Shown: positions 4,444-59,753, counted from the first letter of the stretch. The stretch is DNA of 64,000 bases from Escherichia coli (GCF_024223415.1 NZ_CP100500.1); one strand, 5' to 3'. The notes: generated from the letters alone by a model not told the origin. Translations and numbers: made by a program.

Positions 4444-5364
4444 ATGAAAACTGTTTCGATAAAACACACTTACTGGGATATAGCTGCTGATATCTATTTC
4501 CCTGACGATTTTAATAGTGAAAAAAAGTATCCTGCCATTATCAGCGCCCATCCAATTGGAAGCTGCAAAGAACAGACATCGGGTAGTGTGTATGGTGCCG
4601 CCCTGGCAAAAGCTGGCTTTATCGTCATTGCTTTTGATGCCAGTTTTCAGGGAAGCAGCGGTGGGGAACCGCGTTATCTGGAAGATCCAACAATGCGAGT
4701 AAAAGACTTCAGCATTGTCGTTGATTACCTTACCAGCTTACCTTACGTTGATGCCGGGCGTATTGGTGTACTGGGTATTTGTGGTGGAGGTGGATATGCC
4801 ATTAATGCCGCAATGACAGAACGTCGAATTAAAGCTATTGGTACTGTCACGGGTGCAAACTACGGGCGTCTTATGCGTGAGGGATTTACAGCGTTTAATC
4901 CTATCGGAGCACTCGAAGCAATGGCGCAACAAAGAACAGACGAAGCTAACGGCGCAAAACTTCGCGTAGATGATTTACTCCCCTCTTCTCCGGATGCAGC
5001 TCTTGAAGCGGGATTAACAGAAATAGACCTTTTTGAAGCCACAGAATATTATCGTTCGCCACGAGGCTGTGCACCTAATGGGGTAAATCGTTCGCTATTC
5101 TCACATCAGACTGTTGCCGTGGGTTGGGATGCATTTCATCTTGCAGAAGTGCTGTTAACTCAACCAATAATGGTTGTGGTGGGCGATAGAGTGGGCGCAT
5201 TTGGTGCCTACCGTGACGGCTGCGAAATTATTGGCCGCGCTGCCTCAAAACATAAAGAGCTGGTCGTGGTTGAAGGTTATTCACATTACGACCTGTATGA
5301 TAAGCCAGAACCTGTGAAACAGGCACTCGATAAATTAATTCCTTTTTATAAAACACATTTGTAA
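4444..5364 (+). CDS. alpha/beta hydrolase (dienelactone-hydrolase-like), no signal peptide
   Basis: 306-aa ORF with IGVLGICGGGGYAINAAM nucleophile-elbow region and KELVVVEGYSHYDLYD C-terminal motif; homologous to the ORF at 24130-25266. Confidence 0.8.
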   Translation: MKTVSIKHTYWDIAADIYFPDDFNSEKKYPAIISAHPIGSCKEQTSGSVYGAALAKAGFIVIAFDASFQGSSGGEPRYLEDPTMRVKDFSIVVDYLTSLPYVDAGRIGVLGICGGGGYAINAAMTERRIKAIGTVTGANYGRLMREGFTAFNPIGALEAMAQQRTDEANGAKLRVDDLLPSSPDAALEAGLTEIDLFEATEYYRSPRGCAPNGVNRSLFSHQTVAVGWDAFHLAEVLLTQPIMVVVGDRVGAFGAYRDGCEIIGRAASKHKELVVVEGYSHYDLYDKPEPVKQALDKLIPFYKTHL

Positions 5365-5607
5365 TAATCTTACAGGGAGATCCCTTATCTCCCTGACATT
5401 TATCCTTTATTGACTACACAACAATAATAAAATTACTCAAAAAGAAATTTCATTAAAAAACAAAAAAGCAGCAACTCAATTATTAAGATTATTAGAAACC
5501 CTTTAAAGGGATTATAAATAAAGCCAGAACTCTTGGTTCCAAAGCTGGCAACAACTAACCAGTTAAAACATACGCATCAAAATCAGATAAACATTTGAGG
5601 TATTGTT

Positions 5608-6750
5608 ATGACAAATAAACACCCATCATTGTTTTCTCCTTTTATGCTGACAGAAAAAATAAAGCTACGTAATCGTATCGTTATGGCTCCTATGACGACC
5701 TGGTCAGCGAATCCTGATGGAACCATCTCTGAGCAAGAACTCGAATTTTATAAACGTCGCTCACAAAATGTTGGTTTAGTAATAACAGGATGTACCTATG
5801 TCACGCCAAGCGGCATTGGGTTTACTCATGAATTTGCCGCGTATGACGACCGTTTCATTAACAGCCTTGAAAAGTTAGCAGCGGCAGCCAAAAGTGGGGG
5901 TGCTCCGGCTATTTTGCAGGTTTTCCACGCCGGTAATAAAGCCATCCCGGAGCTTGTACCAACTAACGATGTTATTAGTGCCAGCGCATCAAGCGTAAAA
6001 TCTGGTGACTTTATGAAGAGAGTGGTACAAAGCAGGGAAATGACTGAAAACGAAATTCAGGAAACCATTAGAGCATTCGGAGATGTCACAAAAAGGGCGA
6101 TTAAAGCAGGTTTTGATGGCATTGAACTTCATGGTGCGCACGGATTCCTTCTACAGAATTTCTTCTCCCCTCTATTTAACCAGCGTAATGACCGATGGGG
6201 AGGAGATCTCGAAGGACGTATGCGCTTCCCGCTGGCCGTATTACAGGAAGTAAAAAATGTAGTCTATGAATATGCGACAAAGCCCTTTGCCATCGGTTAC
6301 AGAATATCTCCTGAAGAATCTGCAACAGGGGGGCTGCGGATAGAGGATACTTATAAACTCCTTGATCGGCTCATTTCATCCGGTATTTCGTATATACATA
6401 CCTCGCTGGTCAGTATTAACGATAGCTACCCTGTTGAGTCGCCAAATGGCCCCCGAACTATTGAATTGATTTTAAATCATATTGCAGGCAGAGTGCCGGT
6501 AATCGCTGCAGGTAAAATACGCACACCGTCTCAGGCTCAAGAAGCAATTTCCACTGGCCTGCCACTTGTTGCGATCGGTAAAGGGCTGGTGATAAATCCA
6601 GAATGGGTGACTTTAGCTGAATCAGGTAGAGGCCATGAAATTCAAACAACCCTTAATCCACAACTTGTTCCTGAATTAACCATTCCGGATAAACTATGGG
6701 ATCAAATTCAGGCATCGAAAGGAACTGGCTGGTTTCCGTTAATGGATTAA
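5608..6750 (+). CDS. NADH:flavin oxidoreductase (Old Yellow Enzyme family)
   Basis: 380-aa ORF; LFSPFMLTEKIKLRNRIVMAPMTT N-terminus and HGAHGFLLQNFFSPLFNQRNDRWGG core are characteristic of the family. Confidence 0.85.
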   Translation: MTNKHPSLFSPFMLTEKIKLRNRIVMAPMTTWSANPDGTISEQELEFYKRRSQNVGLVITGCTYVTPSGIGFTHEFAAYDDRFINSLEKLAAAAKSGGAPAILQVFHAGNKAIPELVPTNDVISASASSVKSGDFMKRVVQSREMTENEIQETIRAFGDVTKRAIKAGFDGIELHGAHGFLLQNFFSPLFNQRNDRWGGDLEGRMRFPLAVLQEVKNVVYEYATKPFAIGYRISPEESATGGLRIEDTYKLLDRLISSGISYIHTSLVSINDSYPVESPNGPRTIELILNHIAGRVPVIAAGKIRTPSQAQEAISTGLPLVAIGKGLVINPEWVTLAESGRGHEIQTTLNPQLVPELTIPDKLWDQIQASKGTGWFPLMD

Positions 6751-44340: not shown

Positions 44341-44601
44341 ATGGCTGCAAATGCATTTGTTCGCGCCCGAATCGATGAAGATCTGAAGAATCAGGCGGCG
44401 GACGTACTGGCCGGGATGGGGCTGACCATCTCTGACCTGGTTCGCATAACCCTCACAAAGGTCGCGCGTGAAAAGGCATTGCCGTTTGATTTACGCGAGC
44501 CTAATCAATTAACCATTCAATCAATCAAAAACAGCGAAGCTGGCGTTGATGTTCATAAGGCCAAAGACGCCGATGATTTATTTGATAAATTAGGAATTTA
44601 A
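44341..44601 (+). CDS. dinJ: antitoxin DinJ
   Basis: 86-aa ORF immediately followed by yafQ. Confidence 0.9.
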   Translation: MAANAFVRARIDEDLKNQAADVLAGMGLTISDLVRITLTKVAREKALPFDLREPNQLTIQSIKNSEAGVDVHKAKDADDLFDKLGI

Positions 44602-44603
44602 AT

Positions 44604-44882
44604 ATGATTCAAAGGGATATTGAATACTCGGGACAATTTTCAAAGGATGTAAAACTTGCACAAAAGCGTCATAAGGATATGAATAAATTGAAATATATTA
44701 TGACGCTTCTTATCAATAATACTTTACCGCTTCCAGCTGTTTATAAAGACCACCCGCTGCAAGGTTCATGGAAAGGTTATCGCGATGCTCATGTCGAACC
44801 GGACTGGATCCTGATTTACAAACTTACCGATAAACTTTTACGATTTGAGAGAACTGGAACTCACGCGGCGCTCTTTGGGTAA
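44604..44882 (+). CDS. yafQ: toxin YafQ (RelE-family mRNA interferase)
   Basis: 92-aa ORF 2 bp after the dinJ stop. Confidence 0.9.
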   Translation: MIQRDIEYSGQFSKDVKLAQKRHKDMNKLKYIMTLLINNTLPLPAVYKDHPLQGSWKGYRDAHVEPDWILIYKLTDKLLRFERTGTHAALFG

Positions 44883-50653: not shown

Positions 50654-51421
50654 GTGCCTGGTTTGAAGATTACGCTTTTGCAGCAACCACTGGTGTGGAT
50701 GGATGGCCCTGCCAACCTGCGTCATTTTGATCGTCAACTGGAAGGTATTACCGGGCGCGATGTGATCGTTCTACCGGAGATGTTTACCAGCGGCTTTGCC
50801 ATGGAAGCGGCTGCTTCGTCGCTAGCACAAGATGACGTAGTGAACTGGATGACAGCCAAAGCGCAGCAGTGCAATGCGCTGATTGCAGGCAGTGTTGCAT
50901 TACAAACGGAGTCTGGTTCGGTTAACCGCTTTTTGCTGGTTGAGCCGGGCGGCACGGTACATTTTTATGATAAGCGTCATCTGTTCCGCATGGCAGATGA
51001 GCATCTGCATTATAAAGCGGGCAATGCGCGAGAGATTGTGGAATGGCGCGGCTGGCGTATTTTGCCGTTGGTGTGCTACGACTTACGTTTTCCGGTGTGG
51101 TCGCGCAATCTCAACGATTATGACCTCGCCATCTACGTTGCCAACTGGCCTGCTCCGCGCTCTCTGCACTGGCAGGCATTGCTGACGGCCCGCGCGATTG
51201 AGAATCAGGCGTATGTGGCGGGATGCAATCGCGTCGGCAGCGATGGCAACGGCTGCCATTATCGCGGTGACAGCCGGGTGATTAATCCACAGGGCGAGAT
51301 TATCGCTACTGCCGACGCGCATCAGGCAACGCGCATTGATGCGGAGCTGTCGATGGCGGTGTTAAGGGAATATCGCGATAAGTTTCCGGCATGGCGGGAT
51401 GCGGATGAGTTTAGGTTGTAG
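50654..51421 (+). CDS. yafV: nitrilase-family omega-amidase
   Basis: Carbon-nitrogen hydrolase family ORF; start taken at GTG 50654 ([11 protein letters not shown]...), preceded by an AAGGAG ribosome-binding site. Confidence 0.85.
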
Positions 51422-51479
51422 TGAGTGGGTGTTGTGTTTAGGGCTGGGGAGAGTCGGGGAAGACTACGAAAGCCCGCTC

Positions 51480-51849
51480 TCCTGCGACCACTTTTATCAT
51501 AGGAGTGTGGAAGTGCTTTTCCATCAATCGCGATGACGTCTTTGTCATTTGATGAATGGCAGTCACGCATCCAGTTAATAAAGCACTCGTGAAATTTTGC
51601 AGGACTGATACAGGATACAACTCTGGCAATGGTATCGTGAACAGGGATACCATTTTCAAAATCACCATATTGTTTTAAAAAATCGAGATGTGTTTCCCCA
51701 AAATCCTCTATATCTTCCCAACCTTCTACACCAGAAATAACGGCACAAATAGTCAACAGAAGAATATCTGACAATTTATGTTCCACTTTCCAGGCTTGAC
51801 TGTAATCGGGAATAATAGAAATATGTTCCATCAATTTTTTAAGTTCCAT
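51480..51849 (-). mobile_element. H-repeat (ISAs1-family) transposase N-terminal fragment
   Basis: N-terminal ~120 residues ([40 protein letters not shown]...) match H-repeat-associated proteins; similarity is lost after about residue 123 and the ORF runs into the yafV 3' end. Has its own AAGGAG ribosome-binding site. Confidence 0.7.
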
Positions 51850-52152: not shown

Positions 52153-53103
52153 TTAGTTTTTATATTTCTCAATATATTCTTTTGAAAGGATTCGCGCCTT
52201 TTCAAACTCTTCAGGAGTTAATCTATTTTCCATCTTCAATTTATATTGAACACTTTTATCAAGTCCATGAGCGTATGCGGCACTGAACCAGGCATATGCC
52301 TTTTTATTATCGAGTGGTAACTCTTTCGTGCCTACGGAATAGATTAATGCAAGATTATGTTGTGCAACAGGATCACCATGTGTGGCTGACTTTCTTAACA
52401 GTTCTATTGCTTTATATTTATTTACAGTAATCCCACCCAGTCCTTCATAGTAAAAGATACTTAGTGCTGATTGTGCTTTTATGAAACCTTGACTTGCCGA
52501 TTTATCATACCAAAAGGCGGCTTTATTATAATCCTTTTTAATAATAACGCCTTCATAATAGAGTCGCCCTAAATGATACTGAGCAACCTTATCCCCTTGC
52601 TCCGCAGCGATACGATACCACTTATCTGCCAGATCTTTTTTATTAGTCTCATCATATAGTAAAGCAAGGTTAGTTTGAGCCGTAACTAATCCAGAATTTG
52701 CAGCTTTATTTAACCACGCTATGGCCTTACCATAATCTCTTATCACGCCACTCCCTTTACTATATAATACTCCTAAGTTTCCCTGCGCTTCTGGAAAACC
52801 TTTTTCAGCTGCCATTTGATAACATTCAAATGCTTTTTCATAATTTTGAGACACCCCATAACCATGAGCATACATAACACCGAGGTTATACTGAGCCTCT
52901 GTCAGCCCCTGTTTTGCTGCAAGCGAGTACCAATATACTGCATCTTTATAACTCTGGATTCCTTCAGAACCACTTCGATATAACTCCGCGAGTTTAAATT
53001 GCGCAGTAGCATCTCCCTTATCAGCATCTTTTCTTATATATGTCATTTTATTGGAGGCTGCTGTGTCTTCTGTCACCCCAATTGCAACAGGAATACTCAA
53101 CAC
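52153..53103 (-). CDS. Sel1-repeat (TPR-like) protein; candidate immunity protein for the upstream Rhs toxin
   Basis: About eight tandem ~36-aa Sel1-type repeats (AQxNLGxxYxxGxGVxxDYxKAxxWYxKAA). Low GC, 45 bp downstream of the Rhs stop. Start codon uncertain (GTG at 53103 or internal ATG). Confidence 0.8.
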   Translation of the reverse strand: MLSIPVAIGVTEDTAASNKMTYIRKDADKGDATAQFKLAELYRSGSEGIQSYKDAVYWYSLAAKQGLTEAQYNLGVMYAHGYGVSQNYEKAFECYQMAAEKGFPEAQGNLGVLYSKGSGVIRDYGKAIAWLNKAANSGLVTAQTNLALLYDETNKKDLADKWYRIAAEQGDKVAQYHLGRLYYEGVIIKKDYNKAAFWYDKSASQGFIKAQSALSIFYYEGLGGITVNKYKAIELLRKSATHGDPVAQHNLALIYSVGTKELPLDNKKAYAWFSAAYAHGLDKSVQYKLKMENRLTPEEFEKARILSKEYIEKYKN

Positions 53104-53147
53104 TTCAAAAAAAAAACATCACAACAACACACATTAATATTTTTCGA

Positions 53148-56100
53148 TTATTTTTTATCGGCATCTTTTTTATCATCACCTTTAAATTTATCTACCGCTT
53201 CACTAGAAGTCATGTCAGTAATATAATCTCCAAATGCATTTTCAGGCACAAAGGGCAATTTACCCAAAGTTGCACCTAATAATTCCTCCGCTCCTGTATC
53301 AGCAGCAGCATAAACACCAGATTTAAAATCCCCTCCCTTACTTAAAAATGACAATCCCATTTTCAAAGCTATTTTCTCAACAAACGTTTTTCCCGCTCCC
53401 CAAGAACCACCTAAAGCACATAGCGCCAACTCGGATTTATCCGGCATCTTATGATCAGACATATAGTCAGTCGTAGCAACCGCACCACATGAACTAAGAC
53501 TTCCAATTGCTATCTCCCCCCATGTAAGAGTCCCCCCTTCTAATGCAGCCGCACTTGCTACTGGCTCGGTAAATACTACTCCGGCAATAACAGGAGGCAG
53601 TAAAGCCCATCCTTTTACATAATCGTCTAATGGATTATACACTCCACGCATACTTGAAAAATCATCCAACGCTTTAAATTTTTCTTCATCTGACAGGTTC
53701 GGGGCGAATCCAACATTAGCCCCCTGCATAGTGTTATAATAATTAGTTCCAAATATCATTTGCGGCGTTACATTAGCTAACCCCAACGGATCTATATGTT
53801 CAATAGGATTGAGTGGGTACTGGTAAGGATTTAATCCTCCTTCCAGCCCAATCGGGTCCTGGGTGATATACCGTCCCTGCAACGGGTCATAGTACCGGTG
53901 ACGGTTGTAATACAGCCCCGACTCCTCATCATACTGCTGTCCCGGCAGACGGTACGGCTGTTGCAGGTGCTGCGCGCTGGTTTCGCCCAGCAGGTTTCCC
54001 CACTCGTCATACTCCCCCTGCCACGCCGTTTCCCCTTCCGGGCTGATGAGCGCCTGCGGCAGTCCCCGGTGGTCGCAGTGGTAAAGATGAAGTTTCCGCT
54101 CCGGGATGTATTCCGCCTCCAGCTGCGCGGCCATCTGCTCCGCCGTCAGCCCGCACTGCGCAAGCCATGCCTCACTCTCCGCACTCACCGCTCCCGCGCG
54201 CAGTTCCCGCTCCAGCCTCCCCAGCATCACCGACAGCTCCGCCGGTAGCGTCACACCCGTGTCCTCTTGCAACACCTCCGCCAGGCTCCGGTGCCGCGCC
54301 TTCGCCTGTTCGCCATTCTCTGTTTCGATTCTCAGGAGCGGCGTGAAGCTCCCCGGCTGGTATACCGTCTGGATACGCGTGGTGCCGGTCTGTATCGTCG
54401 TCAGCCTGTCGCCGTCCCACCCGTACCATGTCACCTCCGGTTTACGCGACAACGACATCCACCCCGTCAGGTCACGCTCCCGCCGCCATACCCGTTTTCC
54501 CGTCCGGCGGCCCAGCGGGTCATAGAGGTAACGGCTCTCCACCTGTGGTTCGCCGTGCTGTATCCGCGTGTAGAACACCAGGCGGTGCTGGCTGTCGTAG
54601 TGGTAGTGGTGGGTCCGCTCGTCGTGCATCCGGATAACCCCTTCCGGGATGCGGTCCGTCTTCTCCGCCAGCCTGCCGTATTCATCGTGGCGGTAGACAT
54701 AGTGCGCATCTTCCGCGATGCGGTTATCCGGCCACGCCGTGAGCGTGCTGTCCGGGTGCAGTTCCGGGTCCGGCAGCCGGTTTCCCGCCGGGTCTGTTGC
54801 ATACGGGATATCGATATCCAGGTTCGCCGCCGTGGTGTGGACGCCCGTCAGCCTTCCCGTGTCACTGTAACGGTACTCCCGGCTCTCCTGCGGGCCGCTG
54901 ATGCGGATTAGCTGTCCGTTGTCGTTCCAGTCGTAGTCACGGTCAAGCTGCGGGAGGTTCAGGTGCCTGCTCCGGAGCTGGCCGCTGGTATTCCAGGCGG
55001 TGGCAAGTTCATATGCCTCCCCGCCGAAGCTGCGGGCCGTCTCACGGTGCAGCCGGTCCCGCGTGTACTCGACCAGTGGCGTTCCGCCCAGCTTCATCCC
55101 CGCAAGATAACCGCTGCCATACGTCAGCCACTCTACCGGCGGCAGACCGTCCGGCTCCTGACGGGTCGCCAGTCCCTGTTCGCTGTACGCGTGCCCCGTC
55201 TCATGCTCCCACAGCATCTCCCCCGTCTCCGGGTTCTCCACCGTCTGCCGTTCGCCCGTCAGGCGGCCTTTATCGTCATAGCCGTAGTGGACCGCCACAC
55301 GGTGGCCTTCACTGGTATGGCTGATGGTGGTTAACCACCCGTGCTCATCATACTGCCACTGCTCCGCCGGGTCGCCGTTCACCGTCCGGTGCGTGATGCG
55401 GTCCGACGCATCGTAATGCCAGAGGGTGATAAGTCCCTCATCTTCACTCTGCGTGAGTTTTCCGGTCAGGTCATAGTGGTAACGTTGCGTCCGCCCGTCA
55501 AAACCGCGCTGTTCAGTCAGCCTGTCCACCGGGTCATACCGGAACGTGGACTGGCTGCCGTTCTCGTTGGTCAGCACGGTGATGCGCCCGGCAGCGTCAT
55601 ACCCCATGCTGCGCGTAAGACCGCCTTCCGTCACACTCACCGGACGCCCGCGTTTATCATATTCGATGGTGCTGCATTTACCGTCCGGTGATATCGTTGC
55701 TGTCAGGTCGCCTGCGGCGCTGTACTCATAACGGATTTCACGCCCCTGCGCATCCTTCTGACTGACCAGTTGCCCACGCGGGTTATAACTGCTGTAAGTG
55801 CTGATGCCTTCTTCCCGGTGAACGGCGATTTGTTGACCGTACCGGTCGTACTCATACCGCGTCGTGTACCCCGAGCAGTCCGTAAAGGCCAGCAGTTGAC
55901 CGTAACGGCTCCATGCCATCTGTTTTGTACTGCCCGTCGCATCCTCTATCCCTGTCGGCAGCTCACTCGCCGGGTCATCATAGCTGTAACTCGTCGTCTC
56001 ACCGCTGCGTGAGGTCTCCGCCGCCAGCCTTCCCTTCTCATCATACTCCCGGCTGCTGCGAAGCCCGTCCGGGTACGTCACCGACGTCACCTGCCGCTGG

Positions 56101-57536
56101 CTGTTATAGCCATACCGTACCGTCCTGCCGTCCGGCCCCGTCACCGCCGTCACCGCACCCGACGCCATATGCAGGCTGTACTCCGTCCGCTGCCCCGCCG
56201 CATCCGTCTGTGCCTTCAGCCTCCCCGCCTCATCATACTCGCTGCGGGTGATGCTCCCGTCCGCATGCTCCTTCTTCACCACCCGCTTCAGGCCGCCTTC
56301 GCCCTCCGTGTACAGCACCTCCCGCCGGTTCAGGCTGTCCGTGATGGTCACACGGTCCTGCCCGTACTCAAAGCGGTAGTCCAGCCCCTCCGGGTTGACC
56401 TGCTCCGTCACCCGACCGGTATCATCATACCGGTAGCGGCTCTCCGGCCTCCCTGCATAATGGTGCGCCACCATCCGCCCCGCGTGCTCCGCATCATAAG
56501 TAAACCCGCGCACCTGCGTCCCGCTGCGGTCATACACCGCCCGCAGTTCTCCGCTGGCCGTGTACGTGTAGCGCGCCAGCGGCGCAGTCGGCTGTTCATC
56601 CGGGTATGCCGGGTCGTGTGTCAGCCACACCGCCTCCAGCCGGATACCGTTATCGGCACCGTACTCTGTACCGGTGGGCAGCGTGTCGGGGAAAACCTGA
56701 GAAGAGGAAACAGAACGGGGACTGGCCGGGGAAGATAAGGAAGACTCGCGCTGTTTACGGAAGGCTTCCGCCCGCTGCGCCTGTGTGGTCAGCGCCAGGT
56801 GAAAACGGCGGCCCGCGCCGTCCGTCACCCCCGTCACCGCGCCCGCCACGTCACCCTCCGCCGCCCTGTGAAAGGCCAGCGTCCGACCAAAGCCATCCAC
56901 CACGCCCGTCAGCACCCGGTATGCGGGCGGCTCCGGCGGCAGCACCTCGTCCGCCTCCGGCACCCGCTCCGGCCAGCTGAGCACCAGCCACTGCCCGGTT
57001 GTGCTGACAGCCATCATATAGGTGTGTGGACTCAGACGGACCGCTTCCGGCAGCGCCCGCCAGAGCCGGGCCAGCGGGTGGTCTTTGTGTTGTTTCAGCA
57101 CCCCACCCCTTGCCAGCCAGAGTGACTCGCTGCGGCTGTAGCTTATCTCGCCGGGAAACAGCGGCTCAAAGTGAATGCTCCTGCCGCCGTTGTCGTTGAG
57201 TATCAGTTCCCGCTCATGAATCTGTAAGCGGATATCAAAGGGGGCTTTCCAGCCGGGGCCAAACACCCCCACCGGCGCGGGCGTCCTGGTCCGGTAACTG
57301 CTGTAGGCACGGGAAAGAATGAACGGCAGCGGGCCGGGCAGCGCAAGGTCCGTCTCGCCCGGCAGCACCTTCGCACCCAGTAGCGGGTTCACCGGGTTAG
57401 CATAGGTAATCCCTCCCGGACACACCGAGCAGGCCACTCCCGTCGGCGCACCTATCAGCACCCCCGCTGAACCCTGCACAATATCCAGTCCCTTGCGGGT
57501 CATATCACCCTGCCGCGCCGCCGGTTTTCCGCCCAT
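53148..57536 (-). CDS. rhs: Rhs-family polymorphic toxin with N-terminal PAAR-like motif and variable C-terminal domain
   Basis: 1462-aa ORF: N-terminus [12 protein letters not shown], long YD-repeat core, core-terminal PxxxxDPxGL motif (DPIGLEGG...IDPLGL), then a 209-aa low-GC extension. AAGGA ribosome-binding site. Confidence 0.9.
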
Positions 57537-57611: not shown

Positions 57612-59753
57612 TCAAAATTGCCGCATATCCGGCATTCCGGGGGGTAAATCTTTCGGCACAGGCGCATCCGGTACAGGTTGTGTGGCACCACAGTTCCAGT
57701 TAATCACCGGCGCATCACCGTTCACATCCGACTCCCCTTCCAGATGAATGTGCGTACCATTAAGAAATATGCTTCCGTCCTTCGTCAGCACCAGCCTTGC
57801 CTTACCACAGCAGAGTTCAAGATGCTCACCGGCAGAATAAACTGCTGTTTGTCCGGTGTTTTCCTTCATCGTCTTGCCCACCGAGAAGGTGACGTTATTC
57901 CCTACATTGACGCTGTAGCCCATTCCCACCATCAGTGATTTATGCAGCCCTACCTGTGAGGACTGCAACAACGCCACCGAGGTATTCATAATGCCGCCTA
58001 CCGTCGTCTGATACGCCACACCCACCGTCAGCGCACGAATGATCCCCACCTTTTCAACCTGGTTTGATCCCACTTTGATAATCTGGTTACTGCCTACCGT
58101 TTCCACCTGGTTGACACCAACCGTCTGTATCTGATTAACGCCAATGTTCTGGATCTGGTTATTGGTAACGGTGATCGCCTGGTTGTTACCTATTTTTTCG
58201 GCATGGTTGTTTATCACATCCGTGGTGCGGTTATTCAGCACCTCGGTGTTCATGTTCTTCTGCGCGTGGATGTAGACCTGTTCTTTCCCTGTCGCATCGT
58301 CAAACTTCAGTTCATTAAACCCGCTGCCCTTATAGGTTTTCGAACGAATGGTCATCTGCGTCTTTGTTCCCGGCAGGCTGCCGGGTGTGCGGTTTTCCTG
58401 GTGGTAGGTGCGCCCCATAATGATCGGCTGGTCCGGATCGCCGTTGAGGAAGTCCACAATCACCTCCTGACCCACGCGCGGTATCGCAAGGTTACCGAAT
58501 CCGGTGCCTGCCCACGCCTGTGCCACACGGATCCAGCATGAACTGTCCTGGTTTGACGGGTTATAACGGTCCCAGTTAAATTTCACCCGCACGCGGCCAT
58601 GTTCATCACAGAAGATTTCCTCGCCTGCCGGTCCCGTCACGACGGCGCTCTGCGGGCCGTCCACCAGCGGTTTCAGCAACGGCTGTGGTCGCCATGTTCT
58701 GTCTGCCGGTATTACCGCAAAATGGTTATCCAGCGTGGTGCCTGAACCCCTGCGTCCCGGTACCGCCTGCGGCTGTTCGCCGTGAAGATCGCTCGCCACC
58801 ACCTGCCATTCCCGGTTCAGGTTCGCCTGCGGATGCCCCGTCAGCACAATTTGCCGTCCCGGCCATATCTCCGGCGAACGGCTTGTTCCGCGCGCCACTT
58901 CTGCGTTGTTGCGCCAGCCATCCATCTGCCAGCGGGCAAAGTTCTGCCCGTGGGCGCCCTTGAAACGTCCGGGGTAGTCATACACTTCATACTGTGTGCG
59001 CTGGTAATCCTGGTACTGGCCTTCCTGATCAAAACGCCCTGCCCAGCCGGGTCGTTTAAAGGTGTAGTCTTTGGTCACCACGGAAGAAGGGCGGATTTGT
59101 GCGCTGTAGCGAAACTGGCTGATGCAGAGGGTGCTTACCTCGGTACGGGTGTTCGGATTCCAGGGGATCTCAAAGGACTCCGGCAGATAACGCACGGTAT
59201 CGCACAGGACCAGGCTTTGGTCGGTACTTTTTTGCGCGTGCTCCTCATAAAAGAAGATGCCTTCCTCCGCCGCCATCCGGCACAGGAAATCGTAATCAGT
59301 CTCACCGTACTGGACACAAAACTCACGGGAAGGATGTGGCTCGCTGAACAGCGGGCTCCACTCGGTCACCCCGTTTTCCTGCAATATCGTGCCGAGGATG
59401 CTTTCGATGTCCTCATTCTGGAAGATACGGAAGTTCTGGCGCAGCCCTGTGCGCCACAGCGGCGGGCATACCTTCATGCTGTACAGCTTCTGGTTTTTGT
59501 CGTTCTCCCCCAGTTCAAACCAGGTCACCACACCTTTCACCCGGCGCTGTACGTCATCGCCCTGCCATATCGTCAGGTAGGCCATTTTGTCGAGGATCTG
59601 CTGGAATTCAAGGGAGAGAAACTGCTGGCTGACCAGAGAGAGATCGAGGGAAAAAAGCGAAGAGAGTGACTGGTTCAGATGAAAGGAGACCACCGCAAAA
59701 GCATCCGGTGGCAGGCCGTCCACTTCCAGCGTGAAACGTAATCCGGTTGACAT
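57612..59753 (-). CDS. vgrG: type VI secretion spike protein VgrG
   Basis: 713-aa ORF recognised as VgrG from the N-terminal sequence and size; C-terminal repetitive (beta-helix-like) region. Confidence 0.9.
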   Translation of the reverse strand: MSTGLRFTLEVDGLPPDAFAVVSFHLNQSLSSLFSLDLSLVSQQFLSLEFQQILDKMAYLTIWQGDDVQRRVKGVVTWFELGENDKNQKLYSMKVCPPLWRTGLRQNFRIFQNEDIESILGTILQENGVTEWSPLFSEPHPSREFCVQYGETDYDFLCRMAAEEGIFFYEEHAQKSTDQSLVLCDTVRYLPESFEIPWNPNTRTEVSTLCISQFRYSAQIRPSSVVTKDYTFKRPGWAGRFDQEGQYQDYQRTQYEVYDYPGRFKGAHGQNFARWQMDGWRNNAEVARGTSRSPEIWPGRQIVLTGHPQANLNREWQVVASDLHGEQPQAVPGRRGSGTTLDNHFAVIPADRTWRPQPLLKPLVDGPQSAVVTGPAGEEIFCDEHGRVRVKFNWDRYNPSNQDSSCWIRVAQAWAGTGFGNLAIPRVGQEVIVDFLNGDPDQPIIMGRTYHQENRTPGSLPGTKTQMTIRSKTYKGSGFNELKFDDATGKEQVYIHAQKNMNTEVLNNRTTDVINNHAEKIGNNQAITVTNNQIQNIGVNQIQTVGVNQVETVGSNQIIKVGSNQVEKVGIIRALTVGVAYQTTVGGIMNTSVALLQSSQVGLHKSLMVGMGYSVNVGNNVTFSVGKTMKENTGQTAVYSAGEHLELCCGKARLVLTKDGSIFLNGTHIHLEGESDVNGDAPVINWNCGATQPVPDAPVPKDLPPGMPDMRQF

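Follow-up and report, generated by a model that had tools for sequence, protein, structure and literature searches.

When a Sel1-repeat gene lies immediately behind the gene for an Rhs toxin, does it encode the immunity protein of that toxin and, if so, why should the protein read as soluble and signal-less? We addressed this question at a locus in a 64,000-nt stretch of the Escherichia coli chromosome (hereafter the window), which adjoins fadE-ivy-yafV. ORF calls together with the RefSeq annotation of near-identical genomes gave the minus-strand gene order hcp, vgrG, rhs, Sel1 ORF and a truncated ISAs1/H-repeat remnant, the last being the distal end of the Rhs element:

57612-59753, minus strand: VgrG spike gene, directly upstream of rhs (ORF call and RefSeq annotation)
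53148-57536, minus strand: Rhs effector gene, 1462 aa (ORF call and Pfam; RefSeq "RHS element core protein")
53151-53777, minus strand: C-terminal toxin domain (CT) of the Rhs protein, 209 aa after DPLGL, marked by a drop in GC and belonging to no described family
52153-53103, minus strand: Sel1-repeat body as read in the window, 316 aa from a GTG, with 6-7 Sel1 repeats and helical caps and without an export signal
51322-51849, minus strand: truncated ISAs1/H-repeat transposase remnant (ORF; RefSeq "ISAs1 family transposase, incomplete" at the same position)

Among the window ORFs there is no adaptor or chaperone gene between vgrG and rhs, and the Sel1 gene is the only ORF called between the Rhs stop and the ISAs1 remnant. 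The Rhs stop codon occupies 53148-53150 and the Sel1 ORF begins 44 nt later on the same strand, confirming the placement given in a preliminary description of the locus (which put the gap at 45 bp). The low GC content that this description ascribed jointly to the Sel1 gene and the toxin extension was also evident (0.35-0.44 over the Sel1 ORF and the last ~630 nt of rhs, vs. 0.62-0.69 in the Rhs core). A scan of the region for promoters and terminators gave no useful result. Elsewhere in the window, the dinJ-yafQ toxin-antitoxin pair (44341-44882) sits in its usual place upstream of yafK and is ordinary. Pfam detected six significant Sel1 repeats (PF08238; E 3.7e-12 to 2.4e-4) and one partial repeat in the Sel1 ORF, and the Sel1 part of an AlphaFold model (pLDDT about 90) folded into seven helix pairs with terminal caps. 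The ORF therefore consists of Sel1-like repeats (SLR), that is, tandem helix-turn-helix repeats of ~36 residues that match the Sel1 profile; the earlier count of about eight was right as to the type of repeat and slightly generous as to the number.

The Rhs protein contains DUF6531, about 13 RHS repeats and an RHS core (Pfam) as well as the DPLGL cleavage motif; its residues 5-8 spell a literal PAAR tetrapeptide, and Pfam returned no PAAR match. It displays the hallmarks of an Rhs polymorphic toxin, namely an Rhs/YD shell, a PxxxxDPxGL motif and a variable, low-GC CT, with GC falling from about 0.65 to about 0.40. Neither Pfam nor NCBIfam assigned the CT to a family. Pore-forming or ionophoric T6SS toxins (Tse5-CT, Ssp6 type) are marked by hydrophobic or glycine-zipper helices that can span the membrane; in the CT, Gly and Ala make up 23.5% of the residues and there are 19 small-xxx-small motifs, but the domain is weakly hydrophobic, with a KD19 (the maximum Kyte-Doolittle hydropathy over 19 residues) of 1.51, below 1.6. 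It is also very rare: we found 5 matches among 5.8 billion clusters and 13 relatives among 1.84 billion representative proteins, and a peptide-pattern scan of 100,044 species-representative genomes revealed none. When the CT was modeled alone in AlphaFold2 (pLDDT 43), helices appeared only at low confidence, and when a CT-linker-Sel1 fusion was modeled from four paired sequences, confidence was high for Sel1 while the CT stayed below pLDDT 45. A profile built from the CT alignment retrieved no Rhs or Tse5 chain from the PDB sequences (E up to 10). We also considered a zeta-type P-loop kinase toxin, given a Walker-A-like GSWGAGKT that follows a hydrophobic stretch at CT residues 124-131 (window 53384-53407). 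This candidate was rejected: PDB kinase matches (adenylate kinase) reached only E 0.3-0.8, Pfam gave no match, the motif becomes GKG or PGR in relatives, and just about 80 residues follow it. A further feature of the CT emerged from its relatives. The first ~55 residues (window 53612-53777) are common to a homologue with a different tail (P0005) and are replaced in a metagenomic locus that keeps the tail (L014), a swapping of segments which indicates that the C-terminal region of the Rhs protein is modular, comprising a linker or pre-toxin piece and the toxin proper.

We turn to the start of the Sel1 gene. From no start codon does the window ORF have a hydrophobic N-terminus (maximum KD19 0.74), and to this extent the preliminary statement that no candidate start yields a signal peptide or membrane helix holds for the window sequence. 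The minus strand from the Rhs stop to the GTG at 53103 reads gatg-T10-gaagtg, and this homopolymer is the only A/T run of nine or more in the 64 kb. Three features of the junction, compared with intact alleles, are relevant here:

53162-53164, minus strand: authentic Sel1 ATG of T9 alleles (RefSeq CDS WP_001695458.1), 17 nt inside rhs
53105-53164, minus strand: stranded leader of 19 codons plus TGA (53107-53105), holding the n-region and most of the h-region, cut from the Sel1 body by the frameshift
53107-53116, minus strand: T10 homopolymer; intact alleles have T9, strain AR_0085 has T12

The T9 allele encodes a product of 336 aa, whose 20 extra residues supply an n-region with charged residues and an h-region of strong hydrophobicity. 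By simple rules of charge, hydropathy and motif, by which all signal sequences were judged, this N-terminus has an n-region of charge +3, reaches a KD19 of 2.54 and contains an A-x-G site (residues 27-29); the h-region of the E. coli protein includes a Glu. For the intact gene, the claim of a missing signal is therefore not supported, and we predict from the sequence that the intact Sel1 N-terminus is a signal peptide or membrane anchor. A lipoprotein reading was rejected for the E. coli protein, in which Met stands before Cys12 and the distance from the charged region to this Cys is too short; a chaperone or adaptor role was likewise rejected on the downstream position and the export signal. 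The best NCBIfam matches of the Sel1 protein are the periplasmic Sel1 proteins MerG, MotX, AlgK and ExoR. Judged by the comparison of alleles, the start of the window ORF and its missing signal are an artefact of a +1 T frameshift and not a property of the gene, and the oddity of a "soluble, signal-less" Sel1 protein is thus a mutation of the window strain and not a new kind of immunity. RefSeq carries both the 316-aa and the 336-aa forms; a single homopolymer indel can make an exported immunity protein look cytoplasmic, and annotation follows the error.

Does the gene belong to the toxin? Of 5426 complete E. coli genomes, 32 contained the Sel1 gene; the toxin-encoding 633 nt occurred in the same 32, and the two were always adjacent, which is the outcome that the proposal of a cognate pair had called for when it suggested looking for co-occurrence in other genomes. 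Co-occurrence within E. coli alone is weak evidence because the family is so rare that linkage partly explains it, and the pairs found across four lineages carry the argument. Besides E. coli, these are (identities are to the window proteins):

Salmonella orphan module: CT 79%, Sel1 81%; both genes carry a frameshift in serovar Texas; T9 run as in E. coli
Metagenomic loci L014 and L031: CT 57% over 176 aa, Sel1 61%; same 17-nt overlap; lipobox-like N-terminus
Metagenomic locus L011: CT 59%, Sel1 36%; toxin a truncated orphan fragment; Sel1 intact, 350 aa, anchored

Every close relative of the CT or of the Sel1 protein that could be placed on DNA was paired. Sel1 clusters at least 61% identical numbered just three among the 5.8 billion, all from these lineages; there were no close Sel1 orthologues away from the toxin, and below 61% identity we found only generic Sel1 proteins of other architectures. 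A degenerate DNA-pattern scan of metagenomes returned 13 loci, 2 of which were true. An apparent Rhs-Sel1 fusion (a 90% cluster of the 336-aa Sel1 protein represented by a 1168-aa Rhs protein) proved on inspection to be a clustering artefact, and with Sel1 clustered under an Rhs representative, searches confined to representatives can miss both the Sel1 protein and the toxin tail. The 17-nt overlap of rhs and Sel1, seen in E. coli as well as in L014 and L031, is a layout of translational coupling. The gene is thus directly downstream of the toxin, co-inherited with it and co-varying with it in four lineages that diverge in parallel, as is typical of an immunity module. Parallel divergence, the conserved overlap and the intact Sel1 gene beside a dead toxin in L011 support a cognate pair and, from these sequence comparisons, the Sel1 gene is very probably the cognate immunity gene of the Rhs toxin, for which it is the best candidate. 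In this respect the preliminary proposal was supported: the gene is the sole ORF before the ISAs1 remnant, strictly adjacent to the toxin, and the same pair is found again in Salmonella and in two diverged lineages from metagenomes. Our literature search retrieved no paper on this particular Rhs-CT/Sel1 pair.

The same comparisons bear on the possibility that the cassette carries Sel1 along in another capacity, either as an exported protein of accessory or virulence type or as a second effector, with immunity being absent or encoded elsewhere. Its closest solved relatives are indeed generic secreted Sel1 proteins (E. coli c5321/EsiB, PDB 4bwr, and Sel1 proteins of Legionella and Helicobacter), one Klebsiella Sel1 protein is toxic on overexpression and was proposed to be an effector (PMC12469244), and distant relatives of the toxin use small membrane proteins (see below). 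Yet no other ORF is available between the toxin and the ISAs1 remnant, strict adjacency, overlap and parallel divergence tie the two genes together, and retention of an intact Sel1 gene beside a truncated orphan toxin, as in L011, is typical of immunity genes. We therefore regard a role other than immunity as unlikely.

Returning to Sel1 as the immunity protein, we compared the N-termini of its orthologues. The Salmonella protein has MAIKNSRKILVCLALAFFFEMLHVDNAIG, that of L011 a 22-residue N-terminal anchor, and those of L014 and L031 a lipobox-like LWGSC (N-terminus MIIKNKKIWLYIMPALFLWGSC). By the same rules, an export-type N-terminus (signal, anchor or lipobox) is found in the T9 allele and all orthologues, and not in the window allele. 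The description of the protein as soluble is not supported by this comparison, since the N-terminus predicted for the intact gene and for every orthologue is a signal peptide, a signal anchor or a lipobox.

How common is the frameshift? Tract lengths in the 32 E. coli genomes were deduced from the spacing between the toxin match and the Sel1 match, and the tract was read directly in the window, O78 strain 3, AR_0085 and DSM 103246:

Spacing 43 nt, T9: 26 genomes
Spacing 44 nt, T10, like the window: 4 genomes (SCU-316, NCTC10444, KV7, DSM 103246)
Spacing 46 nt, T12: 1 genome (AR_0085)
IS1 inserted at the junction, followed by an intact T9 gene: 1 genome (strain 2824)

In strain 2824, an IS1A (L019 3134-3831) lies within the last ~14 nt of rhs, upstream of the intact T9 Sel1 gene, and uncouples both genes. 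One copy of the Rhs-CT/Sel1 pair was observed on a record of 100,861 bp that is classified as plasmid (NZ_CP104632.1, strain AHM21C2872I, 4445-6071); this may reflect either the wrong assignment of a chromosomal contig or genuine transfer. At the protein level, the 336-aa T9 product was found on at least 1000 contigs and an alternative 326-aa call on 419, and none of six possible T10-derived products occurred in a collection of 15 billion proteins. That absence would be expected if the extra T were a homopolymer error of sequencing or assembly and the strain were really T9; it fits this explanation, too, that T10 occurs only in a few complete, probably long-read, assemblies and that one of these, SCU-316, also has fragmented vgrG and hcp genes. 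Against it, the window, KV7, NCTC10444 and SCU-316, four separate assemblies from a single lineage, all have T10, two other members of the lineage have T9, and the assemblies share an unambiguous 23-bp deletion, which is not a random indel. Because four assemblies share T10, an error becomes less likely, and we judge this explanation quite improbable.

The lineage itself offers a context for the frameshift. Over 12.7 kb, 3 SNPs separate the window from KV7, and over 14.7 kb, 5 SNPs separate it from NCTC10444, with zero indels, which places the window in the lineage of these strains. One and the same 23-bp deletion in tssG is present in KV7 and NCTC10444 (GCAGGTGGGCGCAATGCGCCTGG; L017 16432-17491 and L034 14442-15501), at a place beyond the end of the window. 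The deletion junction was found in just 5 of the 5426 genomes, three with T10 (KV7, NCTC10444, SCU-316) and two with T9 (O78 strain 3, GPEC1446); T10 in the first three may be one single event. O78 strain 3 has an internal stop in tssM as well, and tssG is intact in EC1515 (T9). In the same T6SS, the VasL-domain gene is annotated "frameshifted" in every genome examined, EC1515 included (L017 29896-31306, L037 27565-28975 and other loci), either as an ancestral lesion or as a recoding site. The remaining non-T9 genomes are damaged in other ways: AR_0085 (T12) has lost most of its T6SS and has a truncated rhs, and rhs of DSM 103246 (T10) is frameshifted. All five genomes with a non-T9 tract thus have a broken T6SS or a broken rhs, and the state of tssG was looked at in some of the T9 genomes; the link between a non-T9 tract and a broken weapon locus is accordingly suggestive only. 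The confinement of tract variants to loci already broken fits relaxed selection on immunity, and the T6SS of the window lineage is probably dead, with its immunity gene decaying. A frameshift beside a dead T6SS would make the locus a small, clear example of the decay of an effector-immunity pair.

Tract variation could also be read as a switch, in which slippage during replication (phase variation) or by RNA polymerase toggles or mixes exported and cytoplasmic isoforms. T9, T10 and T12 alleles exist, Salmonella has kept the T9 run, in many bacteria RNA polymerase tends to slip on stretches of nine A or T (PMC1088944), and a Citrobacter T6SS gene is rescued by slippage (PMC4256274). It is possible that some full-length protein is made from T10 in this way. 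As a general explanation, the switch has poor prospects: the L014 and L011 orthologues have no such run, three TTT Phe codons are expected in a gene of 36% GC, and non-T9 alleles are rare and confined to genomes with a T6SS or a toxin that is already defective. We give just as little chance to the related idea that the conserved T9, which lies within the codons of the signal peptide, serves as a slippage device, by which exported Sel1 would meet incoming toxin and GTG-reinitiated, signal-less Sel1 the cell's own toxin; if true, it would provide dual-compartment immunity from a single gene.

Decay of an exported immunity protein, the reading that we prefer, also has to be weighed against that of the preliminary description, in which a soluble cytoplasmic Sel1 solenoid sequesters the toxin in the cytoplasm of its producer. 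The window ORF, from whichever in-frame start, is without a hydrophobic N-terminus; moreover, the leader TGA ends one nucleotide before the GTG at 53103, and termination-reinitiation could give a signal-less protein. Cytoplasmic immunity to a membrane-depolarizing toxin has a precedent in EsxX of Staphylococcus aureus (PMC12744356). However, the T10 frame occurs in only 4 of the 32 complete genomes and has no product in the large protein collection, the N-terminal export or anchor segment is kept in all orthologues, and the T10 allele is linked to a dead T6SS. Cytoplasmic sequestration is not supported by the signal-less frame, which is a minority frameshift allele, and we consider it highly improbable.

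Where the toxin acts can be approached through the partners of its more distant relatives. P0004 (47% identical) has an ATGA overlap with an 81-aa ORF that has two hydrophobic segments and is followed by a terminator; next to P0013 (32%), on its downstream side, a protein of 192 aa is encoded that has membrane helices at its N-terminus; and downstream of P0005, in which just the first ~55 CT residues are shared and the Gly-rich tail is a different one, there is a hydrophobic ORF of 85 aa. The surroundings of P0004 are an array of orphan Rhs-CT modules (L006 1-2087; also L007 and L008), and behind one of these modules lies an ankyrin-repeat protein, a further repeat protein that is a candidate for immunity. 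Pairing of the toxin with a different neighbor had been named beforehand as an observation that would tell against Sel1; such pairing exists for the distant relatives (47% and 32%) and not for those at least 57% identical. The absence of Sel1 beyond the closer relatives indicates that the presence of Sel1 goes with the last ~150 residues of the toxin. From these gene neighborhoods, Sel1 would not be the sole immunity solution for the toxin family, a 47% homologue having a putative membrane-protein partner that is not homologous to it, and this suggests that homologous toxins may be neutralized by unrelated partners, either an exported solenoid or a small membrane protein. Because the partners throughout the family are all exported, anchored or embedded in the membrane, the probable site of toxin action is the inner membrane, either at its periplasmic face or in its interior; the CT itself is weakly hydrophobic and without a family, and the argument for membrane action is thus drawn from the nature of the partners.

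Taking these observations together, we consider it likely that the gene is a cognate Sel1 immunity gene that is exported in its T9 form and is frameshifted and decaying in the window lineage. In T9 strains, Sel1 would be translated from the ATG 17 nt inside rhs to give the 336-aa protein, and the N-terminal signal peptide or anchor would place the seven-repeat solenoid on the periplasmic side of the inner membrane. We infer, for the binding as for the mode of action of the toxin, that periplasmic Sel1 would most likely bind the incoming CT before the membrane is damaged. With T10, as in the window, the signal sequence would be separated from the Sel1 body, leaving at best a signal-less cytoplasmic protein. 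The 23-bp tssG deletion would probably have rendered the T6SS dead, and the immunity gene would decay under relaxed selection. With these results, a previously undescribed and very rare Rhs toxin domain and its likely immunity partner are defined in E. coli and Salmonella.

Among known systems, a close parallel is formed by PA5086, PA5087 and PA5088 (Tli5b) of Pseudomonas aeruginosa, which counter PldB and, like the present gene, are Sel1 solenoids encoded beside a T6SS effector. These immunity proteins act outside the cytoplasm. PA5087 and PA5088 work by binding phospholipase D effectors directly (PMC7216683), and two PDB entries, 5jkp, which is PA5087 (PMC7108748), and 5jjo, are detectable relatives of our Sel1 protein (E 4e-13 and 2e-11 against PDB sequences). 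The similarity is generic and at the level of the repeat, with unrelated Sel1 proteins scoring far better, and the proteins are not orthologous. The effectors differ as well, a phospholipase D enzyme in P. aeruginosa as against an Rhs CT with neither a PLD nor any other Pfam domain here. A second parallel comes from Klebsiella pneumoniae, in which Sel1E, a Sel1-repeat protein likewise encoded downstream of a T6SS spike-associated toxin, abolishes the toxicity of the VgrG4 DUF2345 domain; its localization was reported as inconclusive (PMC7108748). There, the toxin is an evolved VgrG and not an Rhs CT, and five Sel1 genes form an array in place of the single overlapping gene found here. With Sel1-repeat T6SS immunity already known from these two systems (PMC7216683, PMC7108748), the term "non-canonical" that had been applied to the present gene is not supported.

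On the side of the toxin, Tse5 of P. aeruginosa is also a T6SS Rhs protein with a family-less CT, which targets the inner membrane (PMC9637101, PMC10684867). The membrane activity of Tse5 is known, whereas that of the present toxin is deduced from its partners, and Tsi5 is a two-helix integral membrane protein, in contrast to the Sel1 solenoid that we propose. The small membrane immunity protein of the Tse5/Tsi5 pair resembles the partners of the distant relatives rather than the Sel1 clade (PMC9637101). The membrane-depolarizing EsxX of S. aureus is neutralized in different compartments by two immunity families (PMC12744356), offering a conceptual parallel both to exported vs. signal-less Sel1 and to Sel1 vs. 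small membrane-protein partners; it belongs to a Gram-positive type VII secretion system, its immunity proteins are encoded by separate genes and not by alleles, and there is no sequence relationship. By sequence and by analogy, the present Sel1 protein would work like PA5087/PA5088 and Sel1E, without being orthologous to them, against a partner that is a new Rhs C-terminal domain, and it would bring to three the cases in which Sel1-repeat proteins provide immunity in a T6SS.
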